Position numbers and translations under genes: made by a program. A stretch of 64,000 nt of DNA from a virus (taxonomy: Duplodnaviria; Caudoviricetes): IMG/VR virus record IMGVR_UViG_3300020360_000085, positions 1-64,000 of that record; one strand, written 5' to 3'. Numbering within the stretch: the stretch's first letter is position 1; every line of letters begins with the position of its first letter. Of the stretch, positions 18,012-40,421 are shown one piece after another. A model generated the notes under the pieces. It ran no database searches, was not told the origin of the DNA, and was given only the letters and a program-made list of their open reading frames with translations.

Positions 18012-18359
18012 TTACCAGGAAATATTCCAACTTATAGTATTATTGGAGGCCGTATTGGTTACAACACTTACACCGTATCCTCTGTCCTCAAAATATTTTT
18101 TAACATAGTTAAGTTGGTCTAATTTGGTTGGATCTGTAGTAACACTATTCCAAACATTATAATATACATTACTGTTTGTCATTGTAGTACTACTAATGAT
18201 ATTAGCATATAATACACCAGAATCTATATTGGCTATTACGGCACTTTCTATAGATCTAACTTCAGAGTGTATTACACTATTGTTTCTACTGTCTTTTCTG
18301 GCCTGTGTGGCATTTACAAATAAATTTGAACTGCTGGTATTATTATATAGGTTTGCCAT
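18012..18359 (-). CDS. Hypothetical (probable virion) protein
   Basis: 115-aa ORF in a late operon. Confidence 0.65.
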   Translation of the reverse strand: MANLYNNTSSSNLFVNATQARKDSRNNSVIHSEVRSIESAVIANIDSGVLYANIISSTTMTNSNVYYNVWNSVTTDPTKLDQLNYVKKYFEDRGYGVSVVTNTASNNTISWNISW

Positions 18360-18691
18360 TATAATTCCGCCTTAATATCTTTCATAGCCTGGTCGCCTGC
18401 CATTTTTGCCACATCTACAGAAGGCTCTGGCTCATCTGTATCTATATCTCCAGGCAGTTGATCTTTAGGCTTTATAACATCTTTATCTATGCTACTTGCA
18501 TATCCACTGTCATTAATTGCTTTAATTAATTCATCTGTGGTTGTAACAAATCCGTGTTTTGCTAATTGTGATTGGAAATCCTCAGTAGGAATGTCTTTGG
18601 CATCGTCAGCCATATAAGAGATTAATAGATCCTGAACTGCTGTTAATAGATCTGCCTGATATCCTTCTGTTACAATTTCTCGTATAAGCAT
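18359..18691 (-). CDS. Hypothetical head-associated protein with capsid-targeting-like N-terminus
   Basis: Begins MLIREIVTE-G. Confidence 0.65.
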   Translation of the reverse strand: MLIREIVTEGYQADLLTAVQDLLISYMADDAKDIPTEDFQSQLAKHGFVTTTDELIKAINDSGYASSIDKDVIKPKDQLPGDIDTDEPEPSVDVAKMAGDQAMKDIKAEL

Positions 18692-18692
18692 T

Positions 18693-20024
18693 TTACACCT
18701 CTACAGGTGCTCTTCCTAATGGCTCATCTTCAGGCCCAGCCGCCGCTGGTTCATTAACATCTATGTCATCTAAATCACTCATGTCATCTAGGTCTCCAGC
18801 ATCTGCTACTGGATCTTCATCACCTAAATTACCTAATGCATCAGATCCTCCTAGATTCATATCTTCACCTGTTATTCCGCCCACTAGTTCGTTTACACCA
18901 TCTTTTGCTTGTTTGGCACTATCTAATGCTGAATTTAAAACACCTTCCGCTGAATCTTTAAACTGAGCGGCCTTATCTGCACCAAATTCGCTTATCATTT
19001 GGTCTGCAATAGCAGGTAGATCTTCGTTTACCATTCTGCCTAATCTTTCAACGTGGTCCTGAATGTCGTCTGCCATTGCTCTAACAGCCATAACAACTTC
19101 TGCTTCTTCAACAGACTCAACTTCTTCTGCTAACATGTCATCTATAATGTCATCAAACATGCTTTCTTTTGCTTTTGCTTTCTTACCTAGGATTTTTTCT
19201 GCTGTTTCTTTAGACATTTTTACAGGTTCCATCTCACCGTTTATTTCAACTTCTTTTTTACCATCAATGGCTCCTTGAGCAATAGTCATTGTATATAAGT
19301 CCTCGTTAGTTTTGTGTTGAGCAACTTTGGCTCCAAAAAACTTAATACCATTACTAATTGCATCTTCTTCTAATCCGTTTAGGAATCCAACAACAGAGTC
19401 TTTGCTTTTACCTGATACTTCAGCAAATAAGTCTAATTTTTCTTCTATAGCACTCATGCTATCGTGGTCATTTAAATCTATGCCCATTTCTTTAGCCAGT
19501 TCGCTTAGAAGAAATTCATTTAGTTCTGTGTTGCTTTCTTCTATTGAATCTTCTTTCATTTCTTCATTACAGTGAACCTCGTAATACTCTTTTGCCGCCA
19601 TCATGATTATAGGAAGTACATGTTCATCGCTGTAAGAGTACATAGGATTTTTTCTGTAATTTTGCATACATTGTGAAACTGCTTCATTTTTATTACAGCC
19701 AGAGTCCATTAAGTTTTGGACTTCTGCAACAAGCATGTCTTTCATTTCCATATATGCTGGTGATTCTGCGTACATGCCTTCAGTAAGCATTGTATCTATT
19801 ACGTCTTTTATTCCTAAGTATTTTGCATATTCTGGTTCTAACTGAAAGTGTTTGCTTGTACCCTTTAACTTAATTATAGCATTTTGAGACATCTCTCTGA
19901 TTTGCTCTAATTTTGCTTTTTTAGGGTAACTAGCAGATACTTTTACACCGAATTGCTCACTTAAAAACTTATTAATCTTATCGATTTTTGTTTCGTTTGT
20001 TTGGTTAAATTCTCTTATAAACAT
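18693..20024 (-). CDS. Acidic scaffold-like/internal head protein
   Basis: Begins MFIREFNQTNE; helical and acidic; late box and AGGAAG upstream. Confidence 0.65.
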   Translation of the reverse strand: MFIREFNQTNETKIDKINKFLSEQFGVKVSASYPKKAKLEQIREMSQNAIIKLKGTSKHFQLEPEYAKYLGIKDVIDTMLTEGMYAESPAYMEMKDMLVAEVQNLMDSGCNKNEAVSQCMQNYRKNPMYSYSDEHVLPIIMMAAKEYYEVHCNEEMKEDSIEESNTELNEFLLSELAKEMGIDLNDHDSMSAIEEKLDLFAEVSGKSKDSVVGFLNGLEEDAISNGIKFFGAKVAQHKTNEDLYTMTIAQGAIDGKKEVEINGEMEPVKMSKETAEKILGKKAKAKESMFDDIIDDMLAEEVESVEEAEVVMAVRAMADDIQDHVERLGRMVNEDLPAIADQMISEFGADKAAQFKDSAEGVLNSALDSAKQAKDGVNELVGGITGEDMNLGGSDALGNLGDEDPVADAGDLDDMSDLDDIDVNEPAAAGPEDEPLGRAPVEV

Positions 20025-20091
20025 GGTATCTTCCTAAAATATAAATGTTATAGTCTTATTTATCATTTTGGAAAGATTTTTTTGAAAATTT

Positions 20092-20568
20092 TTAATAGTA
20101 GGATAGTTTTTGTCTGATGTTTTTAAGCATTCCAATACTTTCATCCATTCTGGTCTGTGCTATTAGGCGTCTTTCCATTATTTTTGTAGTTTTAATTGTG
20201 TATTTGTAAAAATGAATATCGTTGTAATGCTTGTAAAAAATATCGCATTCTTTTTGTATTCTTTCTGGTTGTGGTTTATTTTCGATTTTTTTGTCGTTTA
20301 ATGTTTTACAAATCGCTTTTGCCGTTTTTTTAAAGGGAACACTATATACATATACAGAATTGTTAATGTAATTTACAATATTAAATCCAGGTTCTGCAGG
20401 TCTAATAACATATACGCCACGTTTAGCAACTTTATTACTAAGATCGTCTAGTTTTTTTGCTAAATGCTTTTTATTGTAATTTTGTTTTTTGCGGGTATAT
20501 TTTGTAGCCAAGTTCTTCACCTTTCGTAACTTTTTGCAGAATGTCTTTTTTATACATTTCTTCTGCAA
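20092..20568 (-). CDS. Basic hypothetical protein (true start probably downstream, near TTG ~20511)
   Basis: ORF track; the first part overlaps the upstream gene. Confidence 0.55.
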   Translation of the reverse strand: MQKKCIKKTFCKKLRKVKNLATKYTRKKQNYNKKHLAKKLDDLSNKVAKRGVYVIRPAEPGFNIVNYINNSVYVYSVPFKKTAKAICKTLNDKKIENKPQPERIQKECDIFYKHYNDIHFYKYTIKTTKIMERRLIAQTRMDESIGMLKNIRQKLSYY

Positions 20569-20695
20569 TATAAAATTCTCTTTCGTCCATGCTATTTACA
20601 CTTAGAAATCCACTTAAATCTATTTTATTGAACACTCTATTCTCTAAAGTACTAATAAAATTTAAATAATTATTTTTGTCCTTGACTGCTCTCAT
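20471..20695 (-). CDS. Hypothetical protein
   Basis: 74-aa ORF in a packed operon. Confidence 0.6.
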   Translation of the reverse strand: MRAVKDKNNYLNFISTLENRVFNKIDLSGFLSVNSMDEREFYIAEEMYKKDILQKVTKGEELGYKIYPQKTKLQ

Positions 20696-20837
20696 CTTTT
20701 TTTGCTTTCTTTTTCTTTTTCTTCTTCATACTGAAAACACTAGGATTAGGCCTTTTTTGCATTCCGCCTAAAGGAATTGCCACAGTTGCTACTGCACCTG
20801 CGGAAGTTGTTTCAGTAATTATATCTTTTATAAGCAT
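20670..20837 (-). CDS. Small basic internal-head-type peptide
   Basis: MLIKDIITE-TTSAGAVATVA... with a poly-Lys tail; GATAAATA-N5-ATG. Confidence 0.7.
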   Translation of the reverse strand: MLIKDIITETTSAGAVATVAIPLGGMQKRPNPSVFSMKKKKKKKAKKDESSQGQK

Positions 20838-20841
20838 AACT

Positions 20842-21945
20842 CTATTTATCAATTTTTTGCTTTAAATCTTCTGCTACTTTGTTTGCAAAAACTTTATTAC
20901 TGTATATACCAGAGTGTTGCCCATCTCTTGCCATATCAAATATTTTTTTACCGTGTGGATTATTTTTAAATCCTGCATCTCCAAAATCTGTATAACTTGA
21001 ATAAACAAGTAGTGGTATGTCCAATTCAGATGCTAAAAGATTTATTACAGACATCGCTTGAGAACATCTTTGTAAAGTATTTTCAACATTATATAAATCT
21101 TGTGCAAAATGTTTATTAATAGATAATTGTGCTGGTTCTTCGTCTGTTCTATTATTCCAATTTCTTAATATCTTATTATTGTATAATTCTTCTTGCTTTA
21201 GTTCATTAATCCATTCTAATTGTAAAAAATGTTTAAAAATTTTATAATCGCTTATGTTTTTATTATGTTCAATCATACTTCCAATAATAGTTTTTCTTGT
21301 AAATGGAGGTAGTAAAACTACTAAAGCCTTGCAATTTTTTATTTCTGATTTAAAGAAGTATTTACAGTAAAAACTAACAAAGTCTATACCTCTTGCAGGA
21401 AATCCTAAGTTTACAGGTCTGTAACCTAGTTTTTTACAAACTCTTTCAGCCCAAATATTATCTTGATCTAATCCAGTACCAAATGTATGACTACATCCTA
21501 AAAATGCTATACAAGGATCGTTATCTAACTCAGGGCACCTAAAACCATGTGAATTAATATAGTAATTTAAACTGGTTTTTTCTATAGCACTTGTGATATT
21601 GTTAGTATTAGAATCTTTTATTAATTTTAACAAGCCATACTTTTCTAAAATATTTAATATTTCAGGATCATTATCTAACCATCTGTCAGGATTATCTGAC
21701 ACATGATAAGGTAATTTAAAAGAATGTTTGTTGCTGTCATTTTCTACAAACCATTCTATTTTTACATTACCTGTAAAGGCACTCTTAAAAAATGCCTGAC
21801 GTAATTCATGTAGATCTACTTTATTATCTGAGTAATGTTGATTATGTTTGTATAAAATACTATCAATTTCTGACAGATTTTTGTAATAATTATAACTATA
21901 AAAATTAAAACTTTGTACTTGGCTTGGTTCTGTATATATGCCCAT
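20842..21945 (-). CDS. SGNH-hydrolase-like hypothetical protein
   Basis: IAFLGCSHTFG block-I-like motif, VNLGFPARG, C-terminal DGQHSG. Confidence 0.55.
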   Translation of the reverse strand: MGIYTEPSQVQSFNFYSYNYYKNLSEIDSILYKHNQHYSDNKVDLHELRQAFFKSAFTGNVKIEWFVENDSNKHSFKLPYHVSDNPDRWLDNDPEILNILEKYGLLKLIKDSNTNNITSAIEKTSLNYYINSHGFRCPELDNDPCIAFLGCSHTFGTGLDQDNIWAERVCKKLGYRPVNLGFPARGIDFVSFYCKYFFKSEIKNCKALVVLLPPFTRKTIIGSMIEHNKNISDYKIFKHFLQLEWINELKQEELYNNKILRNWNNRTDEEPAQLSINKHFAQDLYNVENTLQRCSQAMSVINLLASELDIPLLVYSSYTDFGDAGFKNNPHGKKIFDMARDGQHSGIYSNKVFANKVAEDLKQKIDK

Positions 21946-21957
21946 GCATATATTTAT

Positions 21958-24900
21958 TTAGGAGTTTTTACGACCGCTCTTCATGTTGGCACACCAGTGA
22001 TACATTTTTGCTTTTTCTCCACTGCTGTTTTTTGCTTTTTTACGCAGACTTGTAACAGAGCCTTTACAACTTGCACCTGCTCGTTTTACTCTGCCTGGAC
22101 GACTTTTGCCTTTAACTTTGCCGTCTTTAAAGTTTTCATCAAATTCTTCCATGCCTTTTTCAAATTCTGTTTTTTGTAAATCCCAAGGACCATAATGTTT
22201 AGTAGCACTTATTTTTTGTAAAACATCTTTATACGAATATTTTTTTAATTCATTAGGATTAATATTTCCTAACTTGTAATATTTTTCTTTCCTCATTACA
22301 GCATTTTTAGTACAGTCATGTACTACATCGCCTATTTCTAACCAACCGTGTCCATAACGTTGGTCTTTTACATAACTGCCTTGTCCTGTTACATACCCAT
22401 GAACCAGGCTTAATGAGTTTAACATAGCAGGGTTTTCTTTAGCATACTCTAACATTTGTTTTATTGCCGCTTCAAAACAATCTCCTCGTTGAATACTTTC
22501 AGGCAATAATTTTGCTCTAGTGGCTACCTTTCCATCAAAAACATCAGCGAATGGAACCTCTTGTTTAGTAGTAACATCATATCCAGTTACTCTTTTTGGA
22601 TGTTGTTTTGCAAGATTTTGCCAAATTTTATGTCCTGCAGGACTCTGTGTACCAAAACTATAAAGTGGTTCTCCATATGCTTTGCTAACTGCCAAGTAAA
22701 CAGGTACAGCAAATCCTTTACCTCTGTAATCACTATGTGTAACCACATTTGTTGTGACCCAACCGTCTAAACCTCTTTTAATAGTGAGTAAAAATATTGG
22801 TTCCTTATTATTCATAAGAAATATATGTCTAGAAACTCCATTATCATATACTTCATTTCTGGATATTCCTGGTATAGATGCTAATTTTAAATGACCTTCC
22901 TCTCCAAATTCTTGAGGGCCTGTTGCATCATTATATCTAAAATTTATTAATCCATTGTCGTCCATGTTATCATATGTTTTAGCACTATGGATTTCATTTA
23001 TTTTTTGCAGTAACTTTGCTTTTAAGTTTTCTATTACCATATATGCTGGTATTTCTTCTTTACCAATATCTTTTGCTTTCTGTACTCTGTGAAATCCATC
23101 TAAAATAGTTTTACCATCAGCATCTACTACTATAGGATCTGTTGTGTCAGCAAAATTTACATCGCCCAAATCACCTATAATTCTGTCAAACCCTGGTGCG
23201 TCCATGTCTAAGTTTGATACTTTAACTGTTGTAAGTTCAGTTTTTTTACCCTTTAAATATTTTCTAACTAGAGGACTTAGATTCCTGCCTTGCTTTGTAA
23301 CGTCTTGTGATTTATAATTTTCTACTACCTCATAATCCTCATCTTCAGGATAATGTCCTGTAGCACTATGATAGTATAACAGTTCTGCGGCATCAGGGTA
23401 GCCTTCTGGGTCTATATATGTAGGGTCTGTTAATCCGTCTAGATAAACTTCTCCATCTTCAAAATGTTGATTACCATAACTGGTCATAATACGATATTGT
23501 TTATCGTCTGTGCTTCTAATAATAACACCATCTTCCTGATCTACCTGTGCTTGGTTTACCCATTCAGAATTGGCTCTGTCTGCTTCTTCTGATGAAAAGA
23601 AAGGCTTTTTTGCTTGTGGATTCATGTCTACAACCTCTCCTTCATTTGTTGCTACAGTTTCTAATATACTGTATAGTGTATTAAACTGGTTGTCCTGTTT
23701 CATCTTTAATACTTTTACAGGAACTCGGTGCATACTTAGTATTTTATTAACACGTTCACGGTCATACTCCAGCGGATCCTGGTCAAATCCTGCCAGTCCA
23801 GTACTCTGTGCATCGTCCTGACTAACAAAATCGTCTTCCATCTGGTCAAAGTCTCTGGCTAACTGTAAGTTTTTGGTGTACTTGTAAATTTTACTAGCCA
23901 ATTCTCTGTGAGTGATAAATTTTTCTTGACTTTCATTCTTAACACAATTAGGCACACGTTTGCCAAACATCATTTTTGTGCCTTTCTTTTTATATCCTTT
24001 CCAGCAACGTGTTCCTTCATCTAATTTTTTATAAACACTATACAAAACAGGATTATTATTACAACCTAGTTCGTCATATACATGACCTCTAATTATAGGT
24101 TCTTGCTTTTGTCTATTGTCAAAGTCTTGATATACCTGTGCGTAAACATCATCTATTGATTCATCATCATATCCATCATTACATTCGTCTGTAAATCCTT
24201 CGTAATGTATAACGTAATCTCCCTGCACATCTACACCAACATCAGTAGGAACAAGTTTGTTTATAAAATCTTGAACTTCGCTAGGTAACTCCATGCTTTC
24301 ATTCATCTTTTTGGTTTTCTTTTTCATTTGGTTTATGTACTTTCTGTACACAGCCGCCGCTGATTTTTTACCTGCCGCCTTGGCTCTTTGTTCCATAGCA
24401 ATGGCGGCCTGTATTTTGTGTGCATGTTTTTTACCTGAACTTCTGATTTTACTAACACTAGCCTTTGCGTCTTTTACAGTAGCAAATTTTAGTCCTTTAA
24501 TTGTGCCTTTGGGATTTTCATCTGTGTATAAGTCACTATGCTTTTTACTACCTGCTGGTTGTCCTTTTTTGCGTGGTATCCTTTTTGCTTCTGCTAATTT
24601 TTCTGCTAGTAAATTTTTAAAGTAATTTTCTGCCATTACTTTTTTATCACTTGTAGTATGAGCAAAATGTTGCATAACATCTTCAATGTCTGCGTCTATC
24701 ATTATAGCAGGTACACGTTTTATGCCCAATATGTTTGCGGCATCATATCTGTGATGTCCATTTATAATATAGCCTTTTTTGTCTACAATAAATGGTCTGT
24801 CTGCTTTTTTAAGGAAAACGTCTTCTGCTTTTTTACTTAGACCTTTTACACGTTGACTTTGTACTGGCTTTAGTTTATCTATACTAATCATGCCTTCCTT

Positions 24901-26202
24901 GTGATCAAACTCTGAATCGTTTACAACGTCATCACGTCTTATCTGTGGTAATTGATTTCTGTCAAAATGTTTATCACTAACACCTCTGTTGTAATCTTCC
25001 TCTACAACTTCTCTCAAACGTATTACACCACAACCTAATCTGTCTCCAGCATTACCTGTTTTTAAACTTTCTTCATCACCACCTTTACCTAAGTCATCTT
25101 CATCTGCATGTACTACTATTGCTCTGCCTACTACATCAGATAAATTTACTCTTTCTGCTTTTATTTGAAATCTGGAAATACCTGATTTATCTGCAATAAT
25201 ATTTCCTAAATCTCCAACATGGCCTTCTTTTAATCCACCATGATCAACTCCATCTGGATTGTAGTGAGCACCTGCACTATCGCAACCATCACTTAAATCT
25301 CCATATTCATGAATGTGTAAACCATGTTTTCCAGGAGTTATGCCTTTTACTATACCTTGTATAAACGTTGCGTTACCAGGCTTTTGAACAAACTTAAACA
25401 TGCCTTCTACATTGTCCTCTGCATGTTCTAGTGTTGCTATTGCTTTAACTGTTTCCTCTGCTTCTGCAATACGATTTACACGTTCACATTGGCAACCTTT
25501 GGACTTTGTTTTAGGGCATGGAGTAATTTTCTCTATTGCTTCATATATGCCTTGCCCAAATTTAAAACTGGATTTTTTCTTTTTCTTCTTTTTCTTTTTG
25601 GATCTTTTATAGGGTGCCATACTACCTATGCCATAAAATCCTCTGCTTACAGGAGCATCACTAGGCGTGGAATCAGCGGATGATGAAGTAGAACTATCTC
25701 CTGAACTACCACCATCTGCAGACCCGCTGTCTCCACTTGAACTTGCTGAACTACCATTGCCGCCTGAACTTGCTCCTGCACCAGCACCTGCACCTGCACC
25801 GGCTCCACCACCAGCACCTGCGCCTCCACCGGCACCACCGCCACCTCCGGCGCCTCCGCCTCCGCCACCACCGCCTCCGGCGTTAGCATAAAGTGACCTT
25901 CTTTCATTGTAAGAGTTTATCATATCATCATATATTACTAATAAATCCTCTACATTGTTATCATTTACCATGTCAGGCTCAAATTGGCCAAATACGTCTA
26001 TAAATTCTGCTTCTATATCTGAGTAAATTGATTTTACATTGTTTCTATCATCAGTTGTAAATGCAATATAATCTGCTAATGCTTGTAATCTGTCTTTAAC
26101 ATCTTTATCTTCAGTTTTGTTCCAAATATCAAAGGCATTGTCTAACCAAACACCTTGGCTAACATATTTTTCTATTTTTTCTGATATCTCTGATAATCTC
26201 AT
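21958..26202 (-). CDS. 1414-aa multidomain virion protein: Gly-rich linker, Cu/Zn SOD, two ParB-like domains, GNAT-like and Cys-His protease-like domains, small basic modules
   Basis: SOD ~25015-25455 with all ligands; ParB-like INGHHR (~24690-24960) and LDGFHR (~23030-23240); YRGKGFA (~22610-22810); GDCFE...HGWLE (~22310-22490). Confidence 0.85.
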   Translation of the reverse strand: MRLSEISEKIEKYVSQGVWLDNAFDIWNKTEDKDVKDRLQALADYIAFTTDDRNNVKSIYSDIEAEFIDVFGQFEPDMVNDNNVEDLLVIYDDMINSYNERRSLYANAGGGGGGGGGAGGGGGAGGGAGAGGGAGAGAGAGAGASSGGNGSSASSSGDSGSADGGSSGDSSTSSSADSTPSDAPVSRGFYGIGSMAPYKRSKKKKKKKKKSSFKFGQGIYEAIEKITPCPKTKSKGCQCERVNRIAEAEETVKAIATLEHAEDNVEGMFKFVQKPGNATFIQGIVKGITPGKHGLHIHEYGDLSDGCDSAGAHYNPDGVDHGGLKEGHVGDLGNIIADKSGISRFQIKAERVNLSDVVGRAIVVHADEDDLGKGGDEESLKTGNAGDRLGCGVIRLREVVEEDYNRGVSDKHFDRNQLPQIRRDDVVNDSEFDHKEGMISIDKLKPVQSQRVKGLSKKAEDVFLKKADRPFIVDKKGYIINGHHRYDAANILGIKRVPAIMIDADIEDVMQHFAHTTSDKKVMAENYFKNLLAEKLAEAKRIPRKKGQPAGSKKHSDLYTDENPKGTIKGLKFATVKDAKASVSKIRSSGKKHAHKIQAAIAMEQRAKAAGKKSAAAVYRKYINQMKKKTKKMNESMELPSEVQDFINKLVPTDVGVDVQGDYVIHYEGFTDECNDGYDDESIDDVYAQVYQDFDNRQKQEPIIRGHVYDELGCNNNPVLYSVYKKLDEGTRCWKGYKKKGTKMMFGKRVPNCVKNESQEKFITHRELASKIYKYTKNLQLARDFDQMEDDFVSQDDAQSTGLAGFDQDPLEYDRERVNKILSMHRVPVKVLKMKQDNQFNTLYSILETVATNEGEVVDMNPQAKKPFFSSEEADRANSEWVNQAQVDQEDGVIIRSTDDKQYRIMTSYGNQHFEDGEVYLDGLTDPTYIDPEGYPDAAELLYYHSATGHYPEDEDYEVVENYKSQDVTKQGRNLSPLVRKYLKGKKTELTTVKVSNLDMDAPGFDRIIGDLGDVNFADTTDPIVVDADGKTILDGFHRVQKAKDIGKEEIPAYMVIENLKAKLLQKINEIHSAKTYDNMDDNGLINFRYNDATGPQEFGEEGHLKLASIPGISRNEVYDNGVSRHIFLMNNKEPIFLLTIKRGLDGWVTTNVVTHSDYRGKGFAVPVYLAVSKAYGEPLYSFGTQSPAGHKIWQNLAKQHPKRVTGYDVTTKQEVPFADVFDGKVATRAKLLPESIQRGDCFEAAIKQMLEYAKENPAMLNSLSLVHGYVTGQGSYVKDQRYGHGWLEIGDVVHDCTKNAVMRKEKYYKLGNINPNELKKYSYKDVLQKISATKHYGPWDLQKTEFEKGMEEFDENFKDGKVKGKSRPGRVKRAGASCKGSVTSLRKKAKNSSGEKAKMYHWCANMKSGRKNS
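25650..25890 (-). repeat. GC-rich low-complexity tract encoding a Gly/Ala then Ser/Gly/Asp linker
   Basis: Degenerate ccacc/ccgcc/gcacct repeats encoding GGGGGGGGGGAGGGGGAGGGAGAGGGAGAGAGAGAG. Confidence 0.9.
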
Positions 26203-32859: not shown

Positions 32860-33146
32860 TATCTTCTTCTTTTGTTTAAAGTTTTTAAACGTCTACTTGC
32901 TGGATTCATCCTTTTAGTTCTTTGTGCTCTTCTTGCCATTCTTGTGCCTAATCTAGATTTAGTTCTTTTCAGCATAAGTCTTTTTTTCATATCTATAGGA
33001 GCATTACATTGTGATGCGTTAGATACTACACGTCCTTTTCTTCTACCGCTAGTACAACGTATTGCACGTTTTACTTTGTTACCCATTCTACGCCATACCA
33101 TTCTGGCTTCTAGAATAGGTTCTTCTGTAAATTCTTCTAATCTCAT
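32859..33146 (-). CDS. Arg/Lys-rich small protein with capsid-targeting-like leader
   Basis: MRLEEFTEEPILE followed by a very basic body with two Cys. Confidence 0.75.
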   Translation of the reverse strand: MRLEEFTEEPILEARMVWRRMGNKVKRAIRCTSGRRKGRVVSNASQCNAPIDMKKRLMLKRTKSRLGTRMARRAQRTKRMNPASRRLKTLNKRRR

Positions 33147-33382
33147 ATAAGTCTCATTACTAAAGTAATTACTGTACTTACTAATGATGTTACAGTAATA
33201 GCAACAATAGAAATAATCCAGTTTTCTAATTTATCTAATCTGCTTTTAGTTGTTTCTTTAAATTCTCTTATTTCTGCTGTAATGCTTTCTATTCTAAGCA
33301 TGTCTGCAATAATATGAGCCTCTATGTTACCGTCCTCGATGTAAGGCTTTGGCATTTTATCTGGTTGAGGTTTCTTTGGCAT
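33143..33382 (-). CDS. Small protein with coiled coil and C-terminal transmembrane helix
   Basis: RLDKLENW followed by a hydrophobic tail. Confidence 0.65.
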   Translation of the reverse strand: MPKKPQPDKMPKPYIEDGNIEAHIIADMLRIESITAEIREFKETTKSRLDKLENWIISIVAITVTSLVSTVITLVMRLI

Positions 33383-33391
33383 TTTTTATTC

Positions 33392-33796
33392 CTACAGTAA
33401 ATCTTGTTTAGTAAATTCCATATTAATTGAACTTTCAGTATCAATTGTACCACCGTTCAATACTATTCCATTTAATTCAGTTTTTAATGTGTCTACAGAG
33501 TGTACGCCTTCTCTTTCAAAAGCAAATTTAAAAATGTGTCCTGCTCCAGTAAGTGTAGGTGCTCCATAATTTTCTAATACATTTGCACCACTACCATTTA
33601 ATGCTACTGGATTATTCATAACAACTGGTTGTGCTCTTAATCCTATAACTTGTACTACACTTTCAAAGTCTTTTTGTGTATTATCACTAAAATCACCTGT
33701 ACTAGTAATATCTATAGTTGTAAACAATGTATAAAATTCTATGTTGCCAGAGACAACCTCCGAACTTCCCATTGCACCACTTCTTGTTAAACTCAT
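33392..33796 (-). CDS. Small virion structural protein (paralog set)
   Basis: Late box at 33817 and GGAG RBS support a start at 33796. Confidence 0.65.
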   Translation of the reverse strand: MSLTRSGAMGSSEVVSGNIEFYTLFTTIDITSTGDFSDNTQKDFESVVQVIGLRAQPVVMNNPVALNGSGANVLENYGAPTLTGAGHIFKFAFEREGVHSVDTLKTELNGIVLNGGTIDTESSINMEFTKQDLL

Positions 33797-33845
33797 GTGT
33801 GTCTCCGTCTTTCTACTATTTATCGGTTTCACAAAAAGTCAAGTC

Positions 33846-33877
33846 AAAAAAAATCCCCACAGTAAGTGAGGATTTTT
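33846..33877 (-). terminator. Intrinsic terminator
   Basis: AAAATCCTCAC/GTGGGGATTTT stem followed by a T-run. Confidence 0.8.
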
Positions 33878-33891
33878 AAAAGTTTTTTAGA

Positions 33892-34263
33892 TTATGCTAA
33901 AATAAATGTTTTTGCTGTAACTGTTGCGTTAGCCAAGTTGACTCCGTCAACTGTACCTAATGCCTGAATAACGTCTTCCAAGTGAACCGCTAATGTTTCA
34001 CTATTAGAACCGTCATATGTGTCAGTACCTTTTTCTCCATCAACCATAAATGCTATTGTTTGATTTGTGTCATACAATGCACTATAACCTAGGATAGAAA
34101 GATTTTCATTTAAAATAGAATGAAAAACTGTTTGGATTGCACTATCTGGACCAGTTTTTGCGTTTACGGCCGCTCCAAATCCAACTTCAAAAAATGTTGG
34201 TTTTAGACCTATCATAAACTTTTCTTCATCCACATGTACAGGGTTTACCTTAGTTTGCGCCAT
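33892..34263 (-). CDS. Small virion structural protein (MAQ paralog 3)
   Basis: Own late box, 5' hairpin, AGGAG and terminator; C-terminal IQALGTVDG..LANATVT. Confidence 0.7.
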   Translation of the reverse strand: MAQTKVNPVHVDEEKFMIGLKPTFFEVGFGAAVNAKTGPDSAIQTVFHSILNENLSILGYSALYDTNQTIAFMVDGEKGTDTYDGSNSETLAVHLEDVIQALGTVDGVNLANATVTAKTFILA

Positions 34264-34322
34264 GTTGTTCTCCTATGTTAGTACCCTTTTGGTACCTATG
34301 CAAATATTTATCTTTCTGTCAT

Positions 34323-34350
34323 AAAAAAAGGGCATGTAAAATGCCCTTCT
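34323..34350 (-). terminator. Intrinsic terminator
   Basis: AAGGGCAT/ATGCCCTT stem with T-run. Confidence 0.85.
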
Positions 34351-34367
34351 TTATATTAAGTTTAAAC

Positions 34368-34712
34368 TTAACTAATAGCCATATCAGTTCCAAGTGTAAC
34401 TGTTGCTGATGCAAAACTATAACTGTTTGCTTCTTGTGTTCCAATTGCTTGTAATTGTGCCTGGACAGCAGTTGCATCGAATTGACTTCCGTCAACTATA
34501 CAATGTATTTTACCTGCTGATGCTGAAGGAACAACATACATAAGTGGTTGAATAATGCTTAATGCTCTTTCAACTGCTTCAAAAGGCGCATCGTCCTCTG
34601 CTTGTAAGTCTGCACCTGTATCAACTAAAACTGCTAATAGGTTGTGTCTTGATATAAGGGTACCCGTTGCGAATTCGGCTACTCCTTTACCTTCTCCTTT
34701 TGTTTGTGCCAT
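34368..34712 (-). CDS. Small virion structural protein (MAQ paralog 2)
   Basis: Own late box, 5' hairpin, AGGAG and terminator; C-terminal LQAIGT....FASATVT. Confidence 0.7.
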   Translation of the reverse strand: MAQTKGEGKGVAEFATGTLISRHNLLAVLVDTGADLQAEDDAPFEAVERALSIIQPLMYVVPSASAGKIHCIVDGSQFDATAVQAQLQAIGTQEANSYSFASATVTLGTDMAIS

Positions 34713-34798
34713 TTTTTTCTCCTAAATTTTTCTATAGACGTTTGTCTATATCTTACTTTTATTTATCATTTTTTAATTATTTTAAAAAGTTTAATGAT

Positions 34799-34827
34799 AA
34801 AAAAAGGCAGTATAAAACTGCCTTTTT
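34799..34827 (-). terminator. Intrinsic terminator
   Basis: AAAAAGGCAG/CTGCCTTTTT stem. Confidence 0.85.
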
Positions 34828-34846
34828 AAAAGTTTTTTAGTTAAAC

Positions 34847-35116
34847 TTAGAAACTGATGTCTGCAATAACGTGTCCTGCTAGGTCACCATTTGCAAGGTT
34901 GTCAGCACCTTCTAGTATAAATTTTACTGTATCTTGAGTTCCTGCTGTGAAATCTCCAACTTTTAATACTGAAAGGTTTAATTGCTGGACTGAACTAACT
35001 AATGCTGTTAATTGTGATGCACTAATGTTTCCTGATTGTTGTTGGAAACTTTTTAAGAATACATCTTTACCAATAAACTCACCAGCCGCCGCCGCTCTTC
35101 TATCTGATTGTGCCAT
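34847..35116 (-). CDS. Small virion structural protein (MAQ paralog 1)
   Basis: Own late box, AGGAG and terminator. Confidence 0.7.
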   Translation of the reverse strand: MAQSDRRAAAAGEFIGKDVFLKSFQQQSGNISASQLTALVSSVQQLNLSVLKVGDFTAGTQDTVKFILEGADNLANGDLAGHVIADISF

Positions 35117-35206
35117 TGTATTTCTCCTAAATTGTTTAGCGACTAAATATCGCCGTTACATTTATTTATCTGATTCGTAAAAAATTTTGAGTATATATTT
35201 GATTTT

Positions 35207-35731
35207 TTAAGATGCTCTTGTTCTACCAAGTTTGGATTGGTAGGATACTTGTGGTGTAGGTAAAAGTTTTGCTAAATCGGTATCTGCATAATCTGATGTA
35301 AACTTTACTAAACCAACCACACCAGTTTCTACACCTTTAACAAACCCTTGATCTATAACTGGTAAGTACTTTTTAAATTCTTGTGGTGTAAATTCACCTC
35401 TTAATTTACCGTGTGTTTCTTCGTTCCAACCTCTTTGATACTTTTTCCTTATTGCATTTGATTGCTCATTAGGATCTGCTACTTTTATTTTGCCTGTTTC
35501 TTCTGCTGTTTTTAACTTATTTATTTTTGTTTTCATTTCGTTTCTTGCTCTAGTTTCAGCCGCTTGTTGGGCCGCATCAACAGAAGTATATCTAGGATCA
35601 GTCCTGGTTCTTTGTAATTGTTGAGCAACTTGTTTGTCATAAGGATCTCCAGAGGCAATAAGACTCTGATAAACCATATCTGCTTCTTTCTGATCTATTT
35701 CTTCTTTTAAAATTATATCATTTATTTTCAT
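35207..35731 (-). CDS. Hypothetical internal head protein
   Basis: Begins MKINDIILKE-E at 35731. Confidence 0.65.
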   Translation of the reverse strand: MKINDIILKEEIDQKEADMVYQSLIASGDPYDKQVAQQLQRTRTDPRYTSVDAAQQAAETRARNEMKTKINKLKTAEETGKIKVADPNEQSNAIRKKYQRGWNEETHGKLRGEFTPQEFKKYLPVIDQGFVKGVETGVVGLVKFTSDYADTDLAKLLPTPQVSYQSKLGRTRAS

Positions 35732-36525
35732 GATTGTCTTTGTCTTCCTCCGGCCCAATAACCTGCTATTGCACCAATACCTGTTCCTGCTCTTTTATAT
35801 TTATCTACATCTTTGCCAAATTTTTGTGCTATCTTTTTACCTGCATACCTTCCTGCTACTGCACCTGCTACTGCACCTGCTACCTTTCTGCCAGTACCTG
35901 GCCTTCTTTTATACTTGTCTGTGATTTCATAACTTCTATATTTTGTCATAGTTTGCAATGGAGTCATCATTTCACTGCCTAATCCTATACGTCTAAATTC
36001 CTGAATTAGTTTTGATGTTACATATTGTTTAGATCTAAACTTAGTGCTTTGCCAATCAGTTGCTAATCTCCTCCAGGACTTGTATCTAGCATCTTTAATT
36101 TTAAGTTGATTTTCCAAACTAATAAAAAATGAAACAGGTCCATCTACAATGGCACCTCTGCCTATTTTATTAAAAAAGTTCCAGTGCCTTCTGTTTTGTA
36201 ATTTTATACTTTTTAAAAATCCAGTACTAATTAAATGATCTTTTAACTTAATATTATCGTTATCAGGATTATCTATTACATATCCTAGCAAATATAAATC
36301 TGTTGCATGTGTTCTAAACAGAGCATAAGGGCCATATTGGGTAGTCCTTTTTGCGTATGCTTTTGCAAAGTTTGTTTGTTTGGAATCTTTTTCCATTATG
36401 TATATGGCCAAACTGGTTAAGTAAAATAAATCTGCAACATCACGTCCAGTTAAGTTTTGGTAATTACGAGAAGTTCTAAAAAGTCTGCCTTCTGTAATTT
36501 CATTATCTAAAAAATCTAATTCCAT
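35728..36525 (-). CDS. Hypothetical head-associated protein with C-terminal glycine zipper
   Basis: MELDFLDNEITE-GRLFRT; AGAVAGAVAGRYAG and GTGIGAIAGYWAG. Confidence 0.65.
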   Translation of the reverse strand: MELDFLDNEITEGRLFRTSRNYQNLTGRDVADLFYLTSLAIYIMEKDSKQTNFAKAYAKRTTQYGPYALFRTHATDLYLLGYVIDNPDNDNIKLKDHLISTGFLKSIKLQNRRHWNFFNKIGRGAIVDGPVSFFISLENQLKIKDARYKSWRRLATDWQSTKFRSKQYVTSKLIQEFRRIGLGSEMMTPLQTMTKYRSYEITDKYKRRPGTGRKVAGAVAGAVAGRYAGKKIAQKFGKDVDKYKRAGTGIGAIAGYWAGGRQRQS

Positions 36526-36526
36526 T

Positions 36527-37786
36527 TTACTCACCAGGCCTACCTGAACCAAAATTTAATCTGCTAAACTCTAATCTATCAATAATTTTTAAGGCACTTC
36601 CCATTCTGTCTACTGCAACAAATCCTTCTTCTGCTGTAACCTCAAATCCATTTTCTGTTTCTTTAAATGTAGGCATCTGTCTGATAGTTTCTAATTTTTG
36701 TACAATTAAATTTTTAGCACCAATTAATTTTGTATATAAGTCATATACACCTACAATACTATTCACATACTCTTTTAAAAATTTTACACCATCTACTAAA
36801 ATTTTTCTATACTCGTCCTGCTTTTTTTCTGTTTTATATCCATCTATCTTTTTTTCCATACGAGCAATATAACTTTGTGTAAACTCACTTGCAAATTTGG
36901 CTGGGTCTTGTTCTATGTAGCCGTCTCTGATGTTGCTGTTTACATGTGCTTTTAAATATTGTATAAATTCTTTACCTATTACATCAGAACCTTTTTCTAT
37001 CCAGTCAAACATTGGTTTACCAATTTTAGTTAAATAATTATTTGCATCTGATATAGCCTTAATCATTTCAACACTTTCCTGCTCTGTAAGTGTTACTGTA
37101 CCACTAAGATCTTTTATAGTGGCATCTCTAAACCATACATCTTTGTTTTTTGTTAATCCACTGCTATTGTATCCAAATTTTGCAGTAGTATCTGCAAGTG
37201 TTGGTCCGCCAACATATTCTGTATGAAATACTATACCCATATTGGATTGCAGTATTTCGTTTGCTAAATCACTGCCTTTAGGTACAGCATATAACAATGT
37301 GTTAGGTTTAAAATATACTACATCGTCACCATCAATTGTGCCTGTTTGTACCGTATCCTTTTTAAATAACATGTCGCCTTGCACAACTGTATCTATGTTT
37401 AACTTGGACAAATTTTCCAATGCTACTTTTAAAATATCCTGTAAACCACTATCTGGATGGTTTTCTTCAATGTCTTTATTTGTAAAATTTATTTTGGGTT
37501 TTTGTGCAAATACACCTTTTGTACCAACAAAAAATTTACCTGTTTCTGGATCTCTGCCACAAACTATTGCTGGAGCACCGTCCCATTTTGTTGTCATAGA
37601 TATTTTTGTTTTGCTACTGCCTTCCAGCATTTCATGTAAACTGTGAAGATAATCAACTGCCTCTTTGGCACCTTCATATCCTTTATTAAAAATATTATCT
37701 TCTAGATGTTCTAAATGAGTGTTTTTACCTTCTGCTTCTAATAAAATACTTTTGAGAATATTTTTATGTAAATCTGTAAACTTCAT
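36527..37786 (-). CDS. Conserved T4-like phage protein (KNTHLEHLED family, DUF6267-like) with ligase-like motifs
   Basis: KNTHLEHLED, TTKWDGAP, QGDMLF, EEGFVAVD, ALKIIDR. Confidence 0.7.
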   Translation of the reverse strand: MKFTDLHKNILKSILLEAEGKNTHLEHLEDNIFNKGYEGAKEAVDYLHSLHEMLEGSSKTKISMTTKWDGAPAIVCGRDPETGKFFVGTKGVFAQKPKINFTNKDIEENHPDSGLQDILKVALENLSKLNIDTVVQGDMLFKKDTVQTGTIDGDDVVYFKPNTLLYAVPKGSDLANEILQSNMGIVFHTEYVGGPTLADTTAKFGYNSSGLTKNKDVWFRDATIKDLSGTVTLTEQESVEMIKAISDANNYLTKIGKPMFDWIEKGSDVIGKEFIQYLKAHVNSNIRDGYIEQDPAKFASEFTQSYIARMEKKIDGYKTEKKQDEYRKILVDGVKFLKEYVNSIVGVYDLYTKLIGAKNLIVQKLETIRQMPTFKETENGFEVTAEEGFVAVDRMGSALKIIDRLEFSRLNFGSGRPGE

Positions 37787-40122
37787 TAAACATTCCCAAA
37801 ATTAGGACTATTAGGATCAGTAGGATCTTCACCTTCAAATGGTTCTGCCGCCCATTCTTCAAATTCCTCAATTAGGCCTTCCTCTCTCATTTTTTTATAT
37901 TGTTCATATGTTAATAAACTTGCTGTTGTGATTTCAAAACCGTTTGTAGCATTTTGTTCACTCTTTACCCAACATGTTCCTTCCATAGGTACAGTTTGTC
38001 CTGGTTTTCCTAGTTCATTTCTTTTTAGTCCAACTATTTTAGCAGGTATAGGCTTGCCTTGTTGACTGGTGTTCTTACCACCAATAAAAAGCACCACATC
38101 GCCAACTTTGTGCTGTACAGGTTTAAATATAGGATCATCTTGATCGTTTTCATCTTGTTCTGATTGGTTTTTAAATTCGTCTAATAATTTTTCTAACTTA
38201 TCTAAATCTACTAACTTTAAGTAATTGACAACAATAATACCAAATCTGTTTAGTACATTGTGTCTTGTGCCAGGACCAGTGTCATAAATTTCTTGTTCTG
38301 GATTATTAGGATTCTTTATTTTTCTTTTGTCTTCCCATTTTTTTCCTGCAAGTTCTGTATAAACTTCTTCCATTTTTGCTAAATTTCCAGTGGTTGCTCT
38401 TTCTGGTGTACCAGATTGTCCAAAATGATATGCCATATTGTAGCCAACTTGCTCTAAAAATTTAATTAAATTAACATTAGGATGTGCTTGTTCGAATTTT
38501 TTTCTGTAACTTTCTTGCTGAGGAAATAATTTTTTTGGATCAAATATTTTATTTCTAATCTGATTGCCATTTTTATCTATTAAAATACCTGAAGGTCCTT
38601 GTGGTTTTAATCCTTTACTTCTGTAGTATTCTAAATCCTGTACCACTACTTCTGTAGGTGCAACTGGATTCATTTCTATAATAACAACCTTTTTAGGCTT
38701 TCCATCTTTAGACACATAGCCAACAACATCTCCCTCTCTGAATTTAGGTGTGACAAAATCTTCTATTTCTTTTAGCAGTCTGAAAATATTGTCACCGTAT
38801 GGTGCAAATTTAAAACCTTTATCATAATTTTTTAAAAGATCTGGTTTTTGGTTATATTTTTGTTCAAATTCTTTTGCAAGGTCTTGTAAAAATTGTCTCA
38901 TTCTTATTAAACCATCCTCAGAATTTCGCCAATTTTTTATTTGGATAACAAATGAATCTGGATTTCTTAAATTAAATAATTTACCATCAGGGTCATGTCT
39001 GTTTCCTTTACGTCTGTCAAAGAAACTTTGAACAGGTTTTTTCAGTAAAGACCCTGCAACATCTCCTATAACACCAAAAAGTTTACCCATTGCATTTAAT
39101 TTAGGATCATTTTGGAATCTCATGCCTTTATTTGAATAAGAACTTAATCTAAAAGCACCATTTTGCCATATTTTCATAAAAGTACTTTTATCACCAGGAC
39201 GTAAATTGGTTTTGCCGTCTGGCTGTTTGCCCTTTATAGCCATCAGCATTTCATGTTCAGGGGAGCCTCTGTCTATTTTTTTGTTGTTTACAGGGTTCAA
39301 CCAATAGCCTTCAACTGCTTCTCCAGTATTTGGATCTTTTACTTGCTTATAAATAAAAATTATTTCTTTGCCATTTTTGTCTTTAAATCCAGGTAACTTT
39401 GCTTTGTCTCCGTCTTTCAACGGTTTTGCATTATCTTGATCTTTTAGTATGTCATCTATAGTACGTTGTATATTTTCTTCTCTGTGGGTTACTAAAAGTT
39501 CTGAAGTTCTATTTCCTTGTTCATCAAATCCAGAAAAGTTCATTAACTTTTTATATGTTAAAGCATCTTCAGTTGGATCTATTCTGATTAGATTACCATC
39601 AGGCACTATTCTGAACCAATTTCCTTCAGTACCAACTGCTGTTTTGGGTTTTGCATTTACCCATTTTTTTAAATTTATGCCGTTTGCTCTTCCGTTTACA
39701 GGAAAATTTACAAACTGTAATTGCTTAGTATCTGGATTTATTTCTGTTTCGCCAGGGTAAACTGTTTTGTAAAAATCTCTTCTTGCAGATTCGAATTCTG
39801 CACTTAGATATTTTCCACCTATCCAAATATGATAGTTGCCTGGTCGGTCAAGATTACCTCTTGTATCAAATCCTATATAGAAAAACTTTTGTATTATTTG
39901 ATCTAAAGCATCACCTGTATAACCTAAAAAGTATCTTTGTGGAATAGATTCTATTCCCATAGATTCAGCATTTCTCCAATTGGGTTCTGATTTTACTAAA
40001 GAATTATAGGAACTTGCAGGAGCATTACGGTCCATTCTTCCGTCACTGACATTAAGTAGACGTTCAATATTGTCCGCAATGGCTTCTTTTATAACAGGTT
40101 TAGTGAAATCTTCAAGTAGCAT
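37786..40122 (-). CDS. Large hypothetical internal head protein with two KOW/SH3-like segments
   Basis: MLLEDFTKPVIKE leader; FREGDVV..VSKDG and HKVGDVVLF segments. Confidence 0.6.
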   Translation of the reverse strand: MLLEDFTKPVIKEAIADNIERLLNVSDGRMDRNAPASSYNSLVKSEPNWRNAESMGIESIPQRYFLGYTGDALDQIIQKFFYIGFDTRGNLDRPGNYHIWIGGKYLSAEFESARRDFYKTVYPGETEINPDTKQLQFVNFPVNGRANGINLKKWVNAKPKTAVGTEGNWFRIVPDGNLIRIDPTEDALTYKKLMNFSGFDEQGNRTSELLVTHREENIQRTIDDILKDQDNAKPLKDGDKAKLPGFKDKNGKEIIFIYKQVKDPNTGEAVEGYWLNPVNNKKIDRGSPEHEMLMAIKGKQPDGKTNLRPGDKSTFMKIWQNGAFRLSSYSNKGMRFQNDPKLNAMGKLFGVIGDVAGSLLKKPVQSFFDRRKGNRHDPDGKLFNLRNPDSFVIQIKNWRNSEDGLIRMRQFLQDLAKEFEQKYNQKPDLLKNYDKGFKFAPYGDNIFRLLKEIEDFVTPKFREGDVVGYVSKDGKPKKVVIIEMNPVAPTEVVVQDLEYYRSKGLKPQGPSGILIDKNGNQIRNKIFDPKKLFPQQESYRKKFEQAHPNVNLIKFLEQVGYNMAYHFGQSGTPERATTGNLAKMEEVYTELAGKKWEDKRKIKNPNNPEQEIYDTGPGTRHNVLNRFGIIVVNYLKLVDLDKLEKLLDEFKNQSEQDENDQDDPIFKPVQHKVGDVVLFIGGKNTSQQGKPIPAKIVGLKRNELGKPGQTVPMEGTCWVKSEQNATNGFEITTASLLTYEQYKKMREEGLIEEFEEWAAEPFEGEDPTDPNSPNFGNV

Positions 40123-40381
40123 CTTTCTGTTCTCTCTGAGATTCTTTTATTATTTTAGTAATACCTCTGGAGAACTTTCTAACGTCTTTGCCCTTGATAC
40201 TGTTTACCAGTCTGTTAGTTAAGTCTTTTGCTGTTTTTTCATCGAAATAAGTTTCGATTTGCTCTATTAAATTGATAGCACTATTGATAACATGCTCTCC
40301 CCTATTAGAGACCACATGGTTTCTGTCTCTGTCGACAGAGATTTGATTAAGTTCCTCTAATATACTGCGGGTTTTCTTCAC
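40112..40381 (-). CDS. Hypothetical protein
   Basis: 89-aa ORF, GTG start with GGAG RBS, late box at 40413. Confidence 0.7.
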   Translation of the reverse strand: MKKTRSILEELNQISVDRDRNHVVSNRGEHVINSAINLIEQIETYFDEKTAKDLTNRLVNSIKGKDVRKFSRGITKIIKESQREQKDAT

Positions 40382-40421
40382 GTTATCTCCAGAAAAATAT
40401 TATCTATAATGCTATTTATCA

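Follow-up and report, generated by a model that had tools for sequence, protein, structure and literature searches.

Why do unrelated proteins encoded side by side in one phage genome begin with a similar short peptide? This question is raised by a gene block on the minus strand, which holds most genes, of the 250,519-bp IMG/VR record IMGVR_UViG_3300020360_000085 (CheckV completeness 66%); its first 64 kb were studied here and are referred to as the window. The phage is an uncultured marine jumbo phage of the Rak2/PA5oct-like group with a T4-type head-assembly core. Between a helicase gene and an exonuclease gene, 19 open reading frames (ORFs) occupy a 22-kb block, and 9-10 of them encode proteins that start with a short leader, amphipathic and acidic, in most cases ending in hydrophobic-x-Glu. 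The leader is probably a T4-type targeting and cleavage signal on cargo that is packaged into the head. The block itself (18.0-40.4 kb) is best explained as a late-expressed virion-protein module, and on the best reading it is a cargo module that has grown large in this lineage.

The leader and its distribution

The initial annotation had listed ten N-termini of the block as sharing M-x-hydrophobic-x-D/E-hydrophobic, followed by hydrophobic-x-Glu. All ten ORFs begin with ATG at the minus-strand positions that it had quoted. They are given below (aa, amino acids; pI, isoelectric point; a slash marks the predicted cut; GATAAATA is a late-type promoter box described further on).

37786..40122, minus strand: 778-aa cargo candidate with the leader MLLEDFTKPVIKE/A, in a slot of variable gene length
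36527..37786, minus strand: 419-aa DUF6267 protein (PF19782, 1.8e-105, residues 22-413 only) with the 17-residue leader MKFTDLHKNILKSILLE/AEGKNTHLEHLED
35728..36525, minus strand: 265-aa basic protein (pI 10.1) with the atypical N-terminus MELDFLDNEITE/GR, which fails the strict pattern
35207..35731, minus strand: 174-aa cargo candidate with the leader MKINDIILKE/E, near T4 gp24 MAKINELLRE, and with its own GATAAATA box
32859..33146, minus strand: 95-aa protein (pI 12; 32 Lys+Arg) with the leader MRLEEFTEEPILE/ARMVWRR, a candidate DNA-binding internal protein
26203..32859, minus strand: 2,218-aa giant cargo candidate with the leader MKFTDVKTLNHLLKE/Y
21958..26202, minus strand: 1,414-aa multi-domain polyvalent-type cargo candidate with the leader MRLSEISE/K
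20670..20837, minus strand: 55-aa peptide with the leader MLIKDIITE/TTSAGAVATVA... and a poly-Lys tail
18693..20024, minus strand: 443-aa acidic virion-protein homologue (phrog_14154) starting with MFIREFNQTNE..., which lacks the second half of the leader
18359..18691, minus strand: 110-aa acidic protein with the leader MLIREIVTE/G

Nine of the ten N-termini match ^M.[LIVMF].[DE][LIVMFY], but that of the 265-aa protein is out of register. The second half of the description holds for eight of the nine, which carry [LIVMF]-x-E within residues 6-20, but not for the 443-aa protein, in which the quoted site is T-N-E and the P3 residue is not hydrophobic. With these two exceptions, eight of the ten listed proteins have a putative propeptide of about 10-20 residues with a hydrophobic-x-Glu end, the Glu being at position 8-17. 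The reading of roughly 20 kb of genes as one cargo set overstated its extent, since the other block ORFs have no leader; the 9-10 ORFs that do account for 5,706 of about 7,240 residues (79%). Leader-bearing proteins make up most of the residues of the block because both giants carry the leader.

A simple ORF call (271 ORFs) was used for genome-wide counts. The motif is carried by nine of the 19 block ORFs, as compared with 5 of the 252 ORFs in the rest of the 250.5-kb genome (Fisher 8e-9; about 45-fold enrichment). Internal Met positions fit the motif at a rate of 1.4%, and three to five of the fits outside the block are probably due to chance. The statistics of the leader in a single genome are only suggestive. 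The case for it rests on its clustering in the block and on its conservation in other genomes, the comparative data being decisive.

Conservation was analysed in 160 related IMG/VR loci, which were collected with a helicase anchor (80 kept of 323 relatives, 84-99% identical) and an exonuclease anchor (81 relatives). The block proteins of these loci were clustered by BLAST after removal of the first 25 residues. The leader is present on 43 BLAST clusters, and at least 70% of the members have it in 15 of the 38 clusters with three or more members. It is retained in 68 of 71 orthologues of the 110-aa protein, 60 of 66 of the DUF6267 protein, 20 of 21 of the 95-aa basic protein, 19 of 24 of the giant protein (consensus MKFkDvkTlehlLKEY) and 12 of 12 of a 62-66-aa peptide. 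The slot after the 89-aa gene at the head of the block holds proteins of 164-778 aa that fall into three clusters. In 73 related loci they measure 164-758 aa, and the leader is found on 62 of the 73 under a strict definition and on all 73 under a relaxed definition. The leader is never found in 20 families, including the 89-aa and 115-aa proteins and the small acidic "MAQ" proteins.

The consensus of 240 distinct leaders from the 43 clusters is, in percent, M-[K44 L30 R21]-[I75 L14 F10]-x-[D56 E44]-[I65 V19 F10]-[I54]-x-[E61], or in short M-[KLR]-I-[NK]-[DE]-[IV]-I-x-E. The first hydrophobic-x-Glu ends most often at residue 9, and the core is sometimes lengthened to 13-17 residues. When the families are aligned one by one, the class pattern h.h.ahh..a (h, hydrophobic; a, acidic) appears in every leader-bearing orthogroup and individual residues vary (K/R/L, I/L/F, D/E, I/V). 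Because position 4 is free and the other positions change conservatively, the variation argues for selection on the leader as a peptide. The acidic h-x-E junction adjoins the conserved body, as in ...IILE/AE-KNTHLEHLED, ...I-x-E/ARMVWRK and ...LLKE/Y. All inspected orthologues of the 95-aa protein have the junction h-x-E/[AN]RM[VI]WR with leaders of varying length, and the family of the 55-aa peptide has the consensus M[KL]I[NK]D[IV]I[NT]E/T[TS][AS]GG..., its orthologue in Vibrio phage 2.275.O starting with MKKQMKE/SATGGG.... Orthologues of the 265-aa protein have a different conserved junction, [LI][IV]D.E[IL][ST]E/[AG]R, which is preceded by a variable extension.

The DUF6267 family is instructive, since its homologues in cyanophages are leaderless and start directly with M-x-KNTHLEHLED. 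Their N-termini (MAKNTHLEHLED in S-CAM9, MSKNTHLEHLED in P-HM2 and MATQNKHLEHLED in S-PM2) lie a few residues from the predicted mature start here, after the cut ILLE/AEGKNTHLEHLED. Short h-x-E extensions are seen in HTVC008M and Melnitz (MYNDLLVE/DKNTH and ...YITE/DKGGKN). Judged by these alignments, the leader is an add-on to the DUF6267 body. The N-terminal h-x-E extension of DUF6267 occurs only in the jumbo lineage, plus this short form in HTVC008M and Melnitz. DUF6267 corresponds to the T4-like cyanophage gene cluster GC 71, and one to three genes separate its gene from an upstream gp41/DnaB helicase gene in S-PM2, HTVC008M, PA5oct and this phage. Taken over all families, comparison of the loci supports the view that the leader is a portable add-on, common to proteins of unrelated sequence and retained throughout a large lineage.

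A distant relative, IMGVR_UViG_3300048580_000372 (exonuclease 42% identical), has other block genes with the leader-like starts MKIVDLLLE, MLLDEIFGE and MRAYELFEK. Because of these starts, the leader system appears to reach well past the close marine clade. The lineage is common in marine metagenomes, where a helicase relative was found in 323 IMG/VR stretches. A megablast search of 50,697 phage records with the block gave zero matches. The phage does not belong to the cyanomyoviruses; the nearest cultured relatives for the block region are Rak2/PA5oct-like jumbo phages.

Head genes, late-type promoter boxes and virions of relatives

The head core of the genome lies outside the window and follows the T4 order: portal, a 70-aa gene, an acidic 261-aa gene, S77 protease, gp22-like and gp23. 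Four of these genes are needed here.

Genome 109208-110920: portal, head core
Genome 108996-109208: 70-aa gene between portal and protease, in the T4 gp67/gp68 slot; its N-terminus MRLIEFYNPEFDE (MRLIEF...) fits the leader pattern
Genome 107373-107999: Peptidase_S77 protease (PF03420, 3.3e-27), between the portal and the gp22/gp23 homologues
Genome 105097-106236: gp23 capsid protein (PF07068, 2.9e-81)

T4 gp21 cleaves at the consensus (L/I)-x-E. The GELDHP and GVSSRG blocks of the S77 protease align with the conserved His and Ser blocks of gp21, and the capsid proteins align at HLSE/AATAG here, FLTE/AEIGG in T4 and FLVE/NASAG in PA5oct. Because the His and Ser blocks are kept and the capsid site aligns with that of T4, the substrate rule of the gp21-type S77 protease is very probably conserved in this lineage. 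When the S77 protease and the 55-aa leader peptide were modelled as a complex, the score was 0.00 with a partner pLDDT (predicted local distance difference test) of about 34, which counts neither way.

The T4 peptide with which the initial annotation had compared these N-termini is the right reference: MKTYQEFIAE is encoded twice in T4, on IPII and IPIII, and has a capsid-targeting role (PMC5694885, PMC9958956). The 10-20-residue propeptides of T4 are capsid-targeting sequences that are removed by gp21 (PMC5694885, PMC9958956). Other T4 N-termini are MKTFKEFTSTTTPVSTITE on IPI and MAKINELLRE on gp24. The T4 proteins with a targeting sequence or a propeptide cut by gp21 comprise IPI, IPII, IPIII, Alt, gp24, gp67 and gp68. 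Counted back from the Glu, Y-Q-E-F-I-A-E of IPII/IPIII and I-N-E-L-L-R-E of gp24 have the same class register (h-x-acid-h-h-x-E) as I-N-[DE]-I-I-x-E here, whereas the leader core here is a 9-mer with one residue fewer between Met and the acidic position. The likeness spans nine residues, too few to prove homology. Further shared features are a short leader on unrelated proteins, the hydrophobic-x-Glu end, a genome-encoded S77 protease, a small gene with the leader in the portal-protease slot, and candidate cargo that includes basic DNA-binding-type proteins and enzymes. However, the T4 leaders are near-identical and are carried by three small internal proteins and Alt, whereas the leader here is degenerate and found on far more and larger proteins (up to 2,218 aa). 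Unlike in T4, the cargo genes are gathered in one module of 22 kb, bounded by the helicase gene on one side and the exonuclease gene on the other. The proposed mechanism is classical T4 biology; what stands out here is the scale and the size of the cargo.

Late-type promoter boxes connect the block with the structural genes. GATAAATA occurs in 50 copies in the genome, 40 on the minus strand and 10 on the plus strand, and the T4 sequence TATAAATA in 17 copies. For the two sequences taken together, 39 of 51 minus-strand boxes are followed by a minus-strand start within 100 nucleotides (nt). A box stands in front of the portal gene, the 70-aa core gene and the tube-like, sheath-like and large structural genes, and none is found upstream of helicase, exonuclease, nrdB or the position-labelled primase and gp32-like genes. 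Within the block, boxes occur before the genes of the 89-, 174-, 55- and 443-aa proteins and before every small acidic gene. As an argument from a motif, this distribution fits late transcription of the block. Examples in the window lie at 40382-40420, 35732-35810 and 20838-20852; several boxes end 5 nt before the ATG (position -13) and would therefore leave almost no leader RNA.

The remaining block genes and the two boundary genes are as follows.

40422..41804, minus strand: DnaB-like replicative helicase (phrog_19, 3e-77), upstream block boundary and locus anchor, in the position of PA5oct gp260 / RaK2 gp41
40112..40381, minus strand: 89-aa conserved protein (phrog_11854, 2.5e-23) at the block head, with a GATAAATA box at -39
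33392..35116, minus strand: four small acidic genes (89, 114, 123 and 134 aa; pI 4.3-4.7), leaderless, each with a GATAAATA box
33143..33382, minus strand: 79-aa protein (MPKKPQPD...), leaderless; motif in 0 of 13 family members
20842..21945, minus strand: 367-aa protein, leaderless; motif in 0 of 38 family members
20092..20568, minus strand: 158-aa basic ORF (pI 10.1) with an uncertain start codon, leaderless; motif in 0 of 56 family members
18012..18359, minus strand: 115-aa protein, last block gene, leaderless; motif in 0 of 59 family members
17318..17986, minus strand: exonuclease (phrog_298, 1.1e-55), downstream block boundary and second anchor, in the same place in PA5oct, RaK2 and the Vibrio phage

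The 89-aa protein has no M-x-h-x-acid-h leader, yet its N-terminus reads ...SILEE; homologues are found in 89 Rak2/PA5oct-like phage records. Three of the four small acidic proteins begin with MAQ. Related loci retain the families of the four, which may be abundant proteins that decorate the head or lie inside it and that enter leaderless.

PA5oct has the matching order of primase, DnaB-like helicase, small conserved protein, block, exonuclease, Mtd_N-like protein, ribonucleotide reductase alpha/beta and PAAR. The flanks and order are shared by PA5oct gp259-gp245 and RaK2 ORF129-136, and two block proteins have sequence matches, the 89-aa protein by tblastn and the 443-aa protein with PA5oct gp247. 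Virion presence in the marine lineage is deduced solely by orthology and synteny to PA5oct, for which mass spectrometry (MS) of virions detected 93 of 461 gene products (PMC7318152). Between the helicase and exonuclease genes of PA5oct, 13 of 15 genes are annotated as virion proteins, 12 with a note of detection by electrospray ionization tandem MS (ESI-MS/MS). Among those detected, gp247 (MFLKDVKITE/S) aligns by tblastn from residue 1 with the 443-aa protein. Two more of the detected proteins are assigned as counterparts: gp246 ((V)KIKDILVE/S) to the 110-aa protein by position and size rather than by a sequence match, and gp254 (MRLDEIQSK...) to the 95-aa protein by position, size and leader. 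ESI-MS/MS also detected gp250 and gp251 in the place of the small acidic genes, gp245 in the place of the 115-aa protein and, in the portal-protease slot, the 73-aa gp333 (MKINDIITE/GYYNP), an orthologue of the 70-aa gene. Four of the six full-motif ORFs of PA5oct are MS-detected (gp333, gp247, gp246 and gp104), and the two others, both small, are not.

The same block, with a smaller number of genes, occurs in RaK2 and Vibrio phage 2.275.O, where the leaders include MKFRDIVKITE/D (RaK2 ORF136), MRITELEQLNE/F and MRYKDLCE/G. RaK2 ORF136 is assigned as the counterpart of the 110-aa protein by position and size rather than by a sequence match, and 73 records of Rak2-like phages contain its family from the first residue on. 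The RefSeq name "virion structural protein" does not always have an experimental basis; RaK2 ORF129 and ORF136, at a minimum, bear it in RefSeq but are "hypothetical protein" in the authors' GenBank entry, and these names were not counted as independent evidence. Blocks of cultured Rak2/PA5oct-like phages measure 4-10 kb and have 2-4 leader genes, whereas that of the marine lineage measures 22 kb and has at least 9; the two giants of the marine lineage are absent from PA5oct.

Proposed function of the leader and competing explanations

By analogy with T4, the leader would bind the protein to the scaffolding core during prohead assembly, and the gp21-type S77 protease would then cut after the leader Glu. 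The mature cargo, namely the two giants, the DUF6267 protein, the protamine-like 95-aa protein, the Lys-tailed peptide and the orphan proteins, would remain in the head with the DNA, and at least part of it may be released into the host upon infection. Taken by itself, injection of the cargo into the host is a plausible step that we hold with slightly more doubt than belief.

Several observations weigh against this account. The motif is short and degenerate, with a chance rate of 1-4% per ORF, and the regular expression was set only after inspection of these sequences. In favour of the motif, an enumeration of all 10,500 three-position residue-class patterns over the first 10 residues, made independently of the finding, ranked [3 hydrophobic, 5 acidic, 6 hydrophobic] first (14 seen, 9 of them in the block, as compared with 3.7 expected), but this result by itself fails multiple-test correction. 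Ungapped BLOSUM62 clustering of the N-terminal 9-mers of the genome did not recover the family, the largest component being no larger than in shuffles. The block is situated among replication genes, outside the head module. The PA5oct virion MS also lists ribonucleotide reductase, thymidylate synthase and other non-virion enzymes and is thus incompletely specific, and some poorly transcribed structural regions of PA5oct have been linked by the authors to baseplate or tail rather than head (PMC7318152). Several MS-detected block proteins of PA5oct are leaderless, and the leader-like gp256 (DUF6267-like) of PA5oct is not MS-detected. Targeting, cleavage, a location inside the head and injection are steps that we only infer from the T4 system.

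One alternative is that the leader is a prohead-protease propeptide only, which keeps the protein inactive or assists folding and holds no targeting information, and that the bodies bind to the core or to DNA by themselves. The h-x-E junction is indeed the most invariant feature. Furthermore, the targeting sequence proper is conserved only in IPII and IPIII of T4, other core proteins being cleaved without it (PMC9958956), and the leaderless block proteins in the PA5oct virion point the same way. However, the class pattern of residues 2-7 is conserved across unrelated families and would be superfluous for a bare cleavage site, and the leader is the sole element common to bodies of 46 to about 2,200 residues. 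We therefore consider a propeptide without targeting function unlikely.

Another alternative is that the block encodes virion proteins outside the head, in tail, baseplate, neck or decoration, and that the N-terminus serves another assembly step such as recognition by a chaperone. MS of PA5oct gives virion presence only, and baseplate or tail roles of its structural unknowns have been a matter of speculation by the authors (PMC7318152). A leader-like ORF (genome 80000-80338) lies among neck and tail genes, and a tail-fibre motif, Mtd_N-like, is encoded by the gene that follows the exonuclease gene. However, the motif at the end of the leader is the one for which the head protease is specific. 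The leader is present on the small gene between portal and protease, whereas the known tail, sheath, tube and portal genes of the genome are without it. The cargo also includes soluble enzymes and protamine-like proteins and has no structural-repeat features. A location outside the head is accordingly a quite improbable explanation.

The pattern might also be a by-product of composition with early codons rich in AT, of translation initiation, of gene overlap or of old paralogy, with no signal function. The GC content is about 32%, and the loose regular expression fits 2-4% of T4 and PA5oct ORFs by chance (10 of 278 and 15 of 480, mostly unrelated genes), in keeping with the chance fits outside the block. 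However, the other late genes are without the leader. Position 4 of the leader varies freely, and elsewhere one residue is exchanged for a similar one. The bodies belong to different BLAST clusters, and homologues of DUF6267 without a leader exist; together with the block enrichment, these points make a by-product very improbable. Gene overlap as the cause of N-terminal conservation is rejected because overlaps measure at most 11 nt. The idea that the N-terminus is no capsid signal but a tag recognised by a modifying enzyme, such as a radical S-adenosylmethionine (SAM) enzyme of the type acting on ribosomally synthesized and post-translationally modified peptides or another maturase, can hardly be held, because PA5oct and Vibrio phage 2.275.O keep leader orthologues and have no Radical_SAM match, and also in view of radical-SAM genes lying more than 100 kb from the block and of the in-register match to the T4 capsid-targeting sequence.

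A T4-type leader on head-packaged cargo remains the reading that we favour, and it can be compared with other systems. The phiKZ-type cleavage motif is S/A/G-x-E. In phiKZ and SPN3US, genes for head-internal proteins are likewise clustered, the prohead protease is T4-related and the proteins are ejected with the DNA (PMC5694885, PMC13282480). N-terminal propeptides of phiKZ-like phages are removed after x-x-Glu, and prohead targeting has been proposed for them (PMC5694885, PMC13282480). However, most propeptides of the phiKZ type exceed 100 residues (PMC5694885), whereas the leader here is T4-sized and has a T4-type P3 residue. No PHROG, Pfam or phage-record match of any block protein to phiKZ-like phages was found.

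The capsids of the Rak2-like phages phAPEC6 and 121Q contain an inner body of 91 x 18 nm with unknown composition (PMC7247149), and the block is a candidate source of it. A wider proposal is that the helicase-exonuclease block is the locus of the inner body and of an ejected protein bolus throughout the Rak2/PA5oct-like group, with a cassette slot exchanged behind a constant leader. This proposal is tentative and, on balance, doubtful. If it is true, the injected proteome would be predictable from sequence, and the cargo of the marine lineage would have expanded to about 5,700 residues of enzymes (superoxide dismutase, ParB-like nucleases) and DNA-condensing peptides. No paper linking "capsid targeting" with RaK2, PA5oct, GAP32, 121Q or XacN1 was found in a literature search, and the papers on PA5oct, RaK2 and phAPEC6 are silent on any leader and on processing of the block proteins.

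Should the leader act as it does in T4, capsid-loaded proteins would be predictable by a short sequence rule in the widespread marine lineage as well as in PA5oct, RaK2, 121Q and other cultured relatives, and candidates for the Rak2-like inner body could be named. Superoxide dismutase, ParB-like nucleases and protamine-like proteins would be the probable first-strike proteins. The T4 head route would then be open to giant polyvalent proteins, and the leader would be a tag of natural origin with which foreign proteins could be loaded into jumbo phages for therapy, PA5oct among them.

Candidate cargo proteins and neighbouring genes

The 1,414-aa protein has a complete Cu/Zn superoxide dismutase domain at residues 252-396 (PF00080, 5e-40; PDB SOD1 about 1e-38). 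ParB-like nuclease PHROGs match residues 449-543 with E values from 8e-11 (7.6e-11) to 1e-5, the Pfam ParB matches being below the curated cut-off, and additional PHROG matches lie at residues 726-893 and 987-1062. Polyvalent proteins of phages and conjugative elements, which combine several unrelated effector or enzyme domains in a late or structural context, are predicted to be packaged into the capsid and to be delivered along with the DNA (Iyer, Burroughs, Anand, de Souza and Aravind 2017; PMC5512222). The 1,414-aa protein has these characteristics, joining superoxide dismutase and ParB-like nucleases in one late-type polypeptide. It differs in that superoxide dismutase is not mentioned in the polyvalent survey (PMC5512222) and in that no zincin-like MPTase or MuF domain was detected, the proposed delivery tag being the T4-type leader. 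The superoxide dismutase domain resembles eukaryotic SOD1 structures more than expected for a phage.

The 95-aa protein, whose conserved core reads ARMVWRK...RCTSGRRKGR, and the Lys-tailed 55-aa peptide look like candidates for protamine-like DNA-condensing head proteins, judging by their composition. Sequence searches of the 2,218-, 778-, 265- and 174-aa proteins against Pfam, PHROG and PDB gave nothing above noise at E values up to 5. The 778-aa protein has zero matches in Pfam, PHROG and phage records, and neither tblastn nor the search of related loci found relatives of it.

Two late genes with leader-like starts lie across the end of the window (genome 63780-65602), with the large terminase gene on one side and an unannotated 160-aa gene on the other. 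The latter may be the small terminase by position only, its PHROG label being "unknown function". The two late genes encode proteins of 367 aa (MNLNDVISE/A) and 239 aa (MTELKQYIAE/A). The start of the 239-aa protein is close to T4 MKTYQEFIAE, and the protein has a weak match from residue 1 to phrog_14802 "virion structural protein".

At the other end of the block, the exonuclease gene is followed by a gene for an 888-aa protein (14608-17274, minus strand) with an N-terminal Mtd_N-like motif, MATSNNNVVISRIQNRRG.... This N-terminus is kept in PA5oct gp243, which is MS-detected, in RaK2 ORF139 and in Vibrio phage NVP2275O_029. The 888-aa protein probably forms a fibre or binds the receptor, its C-terminus being variable.

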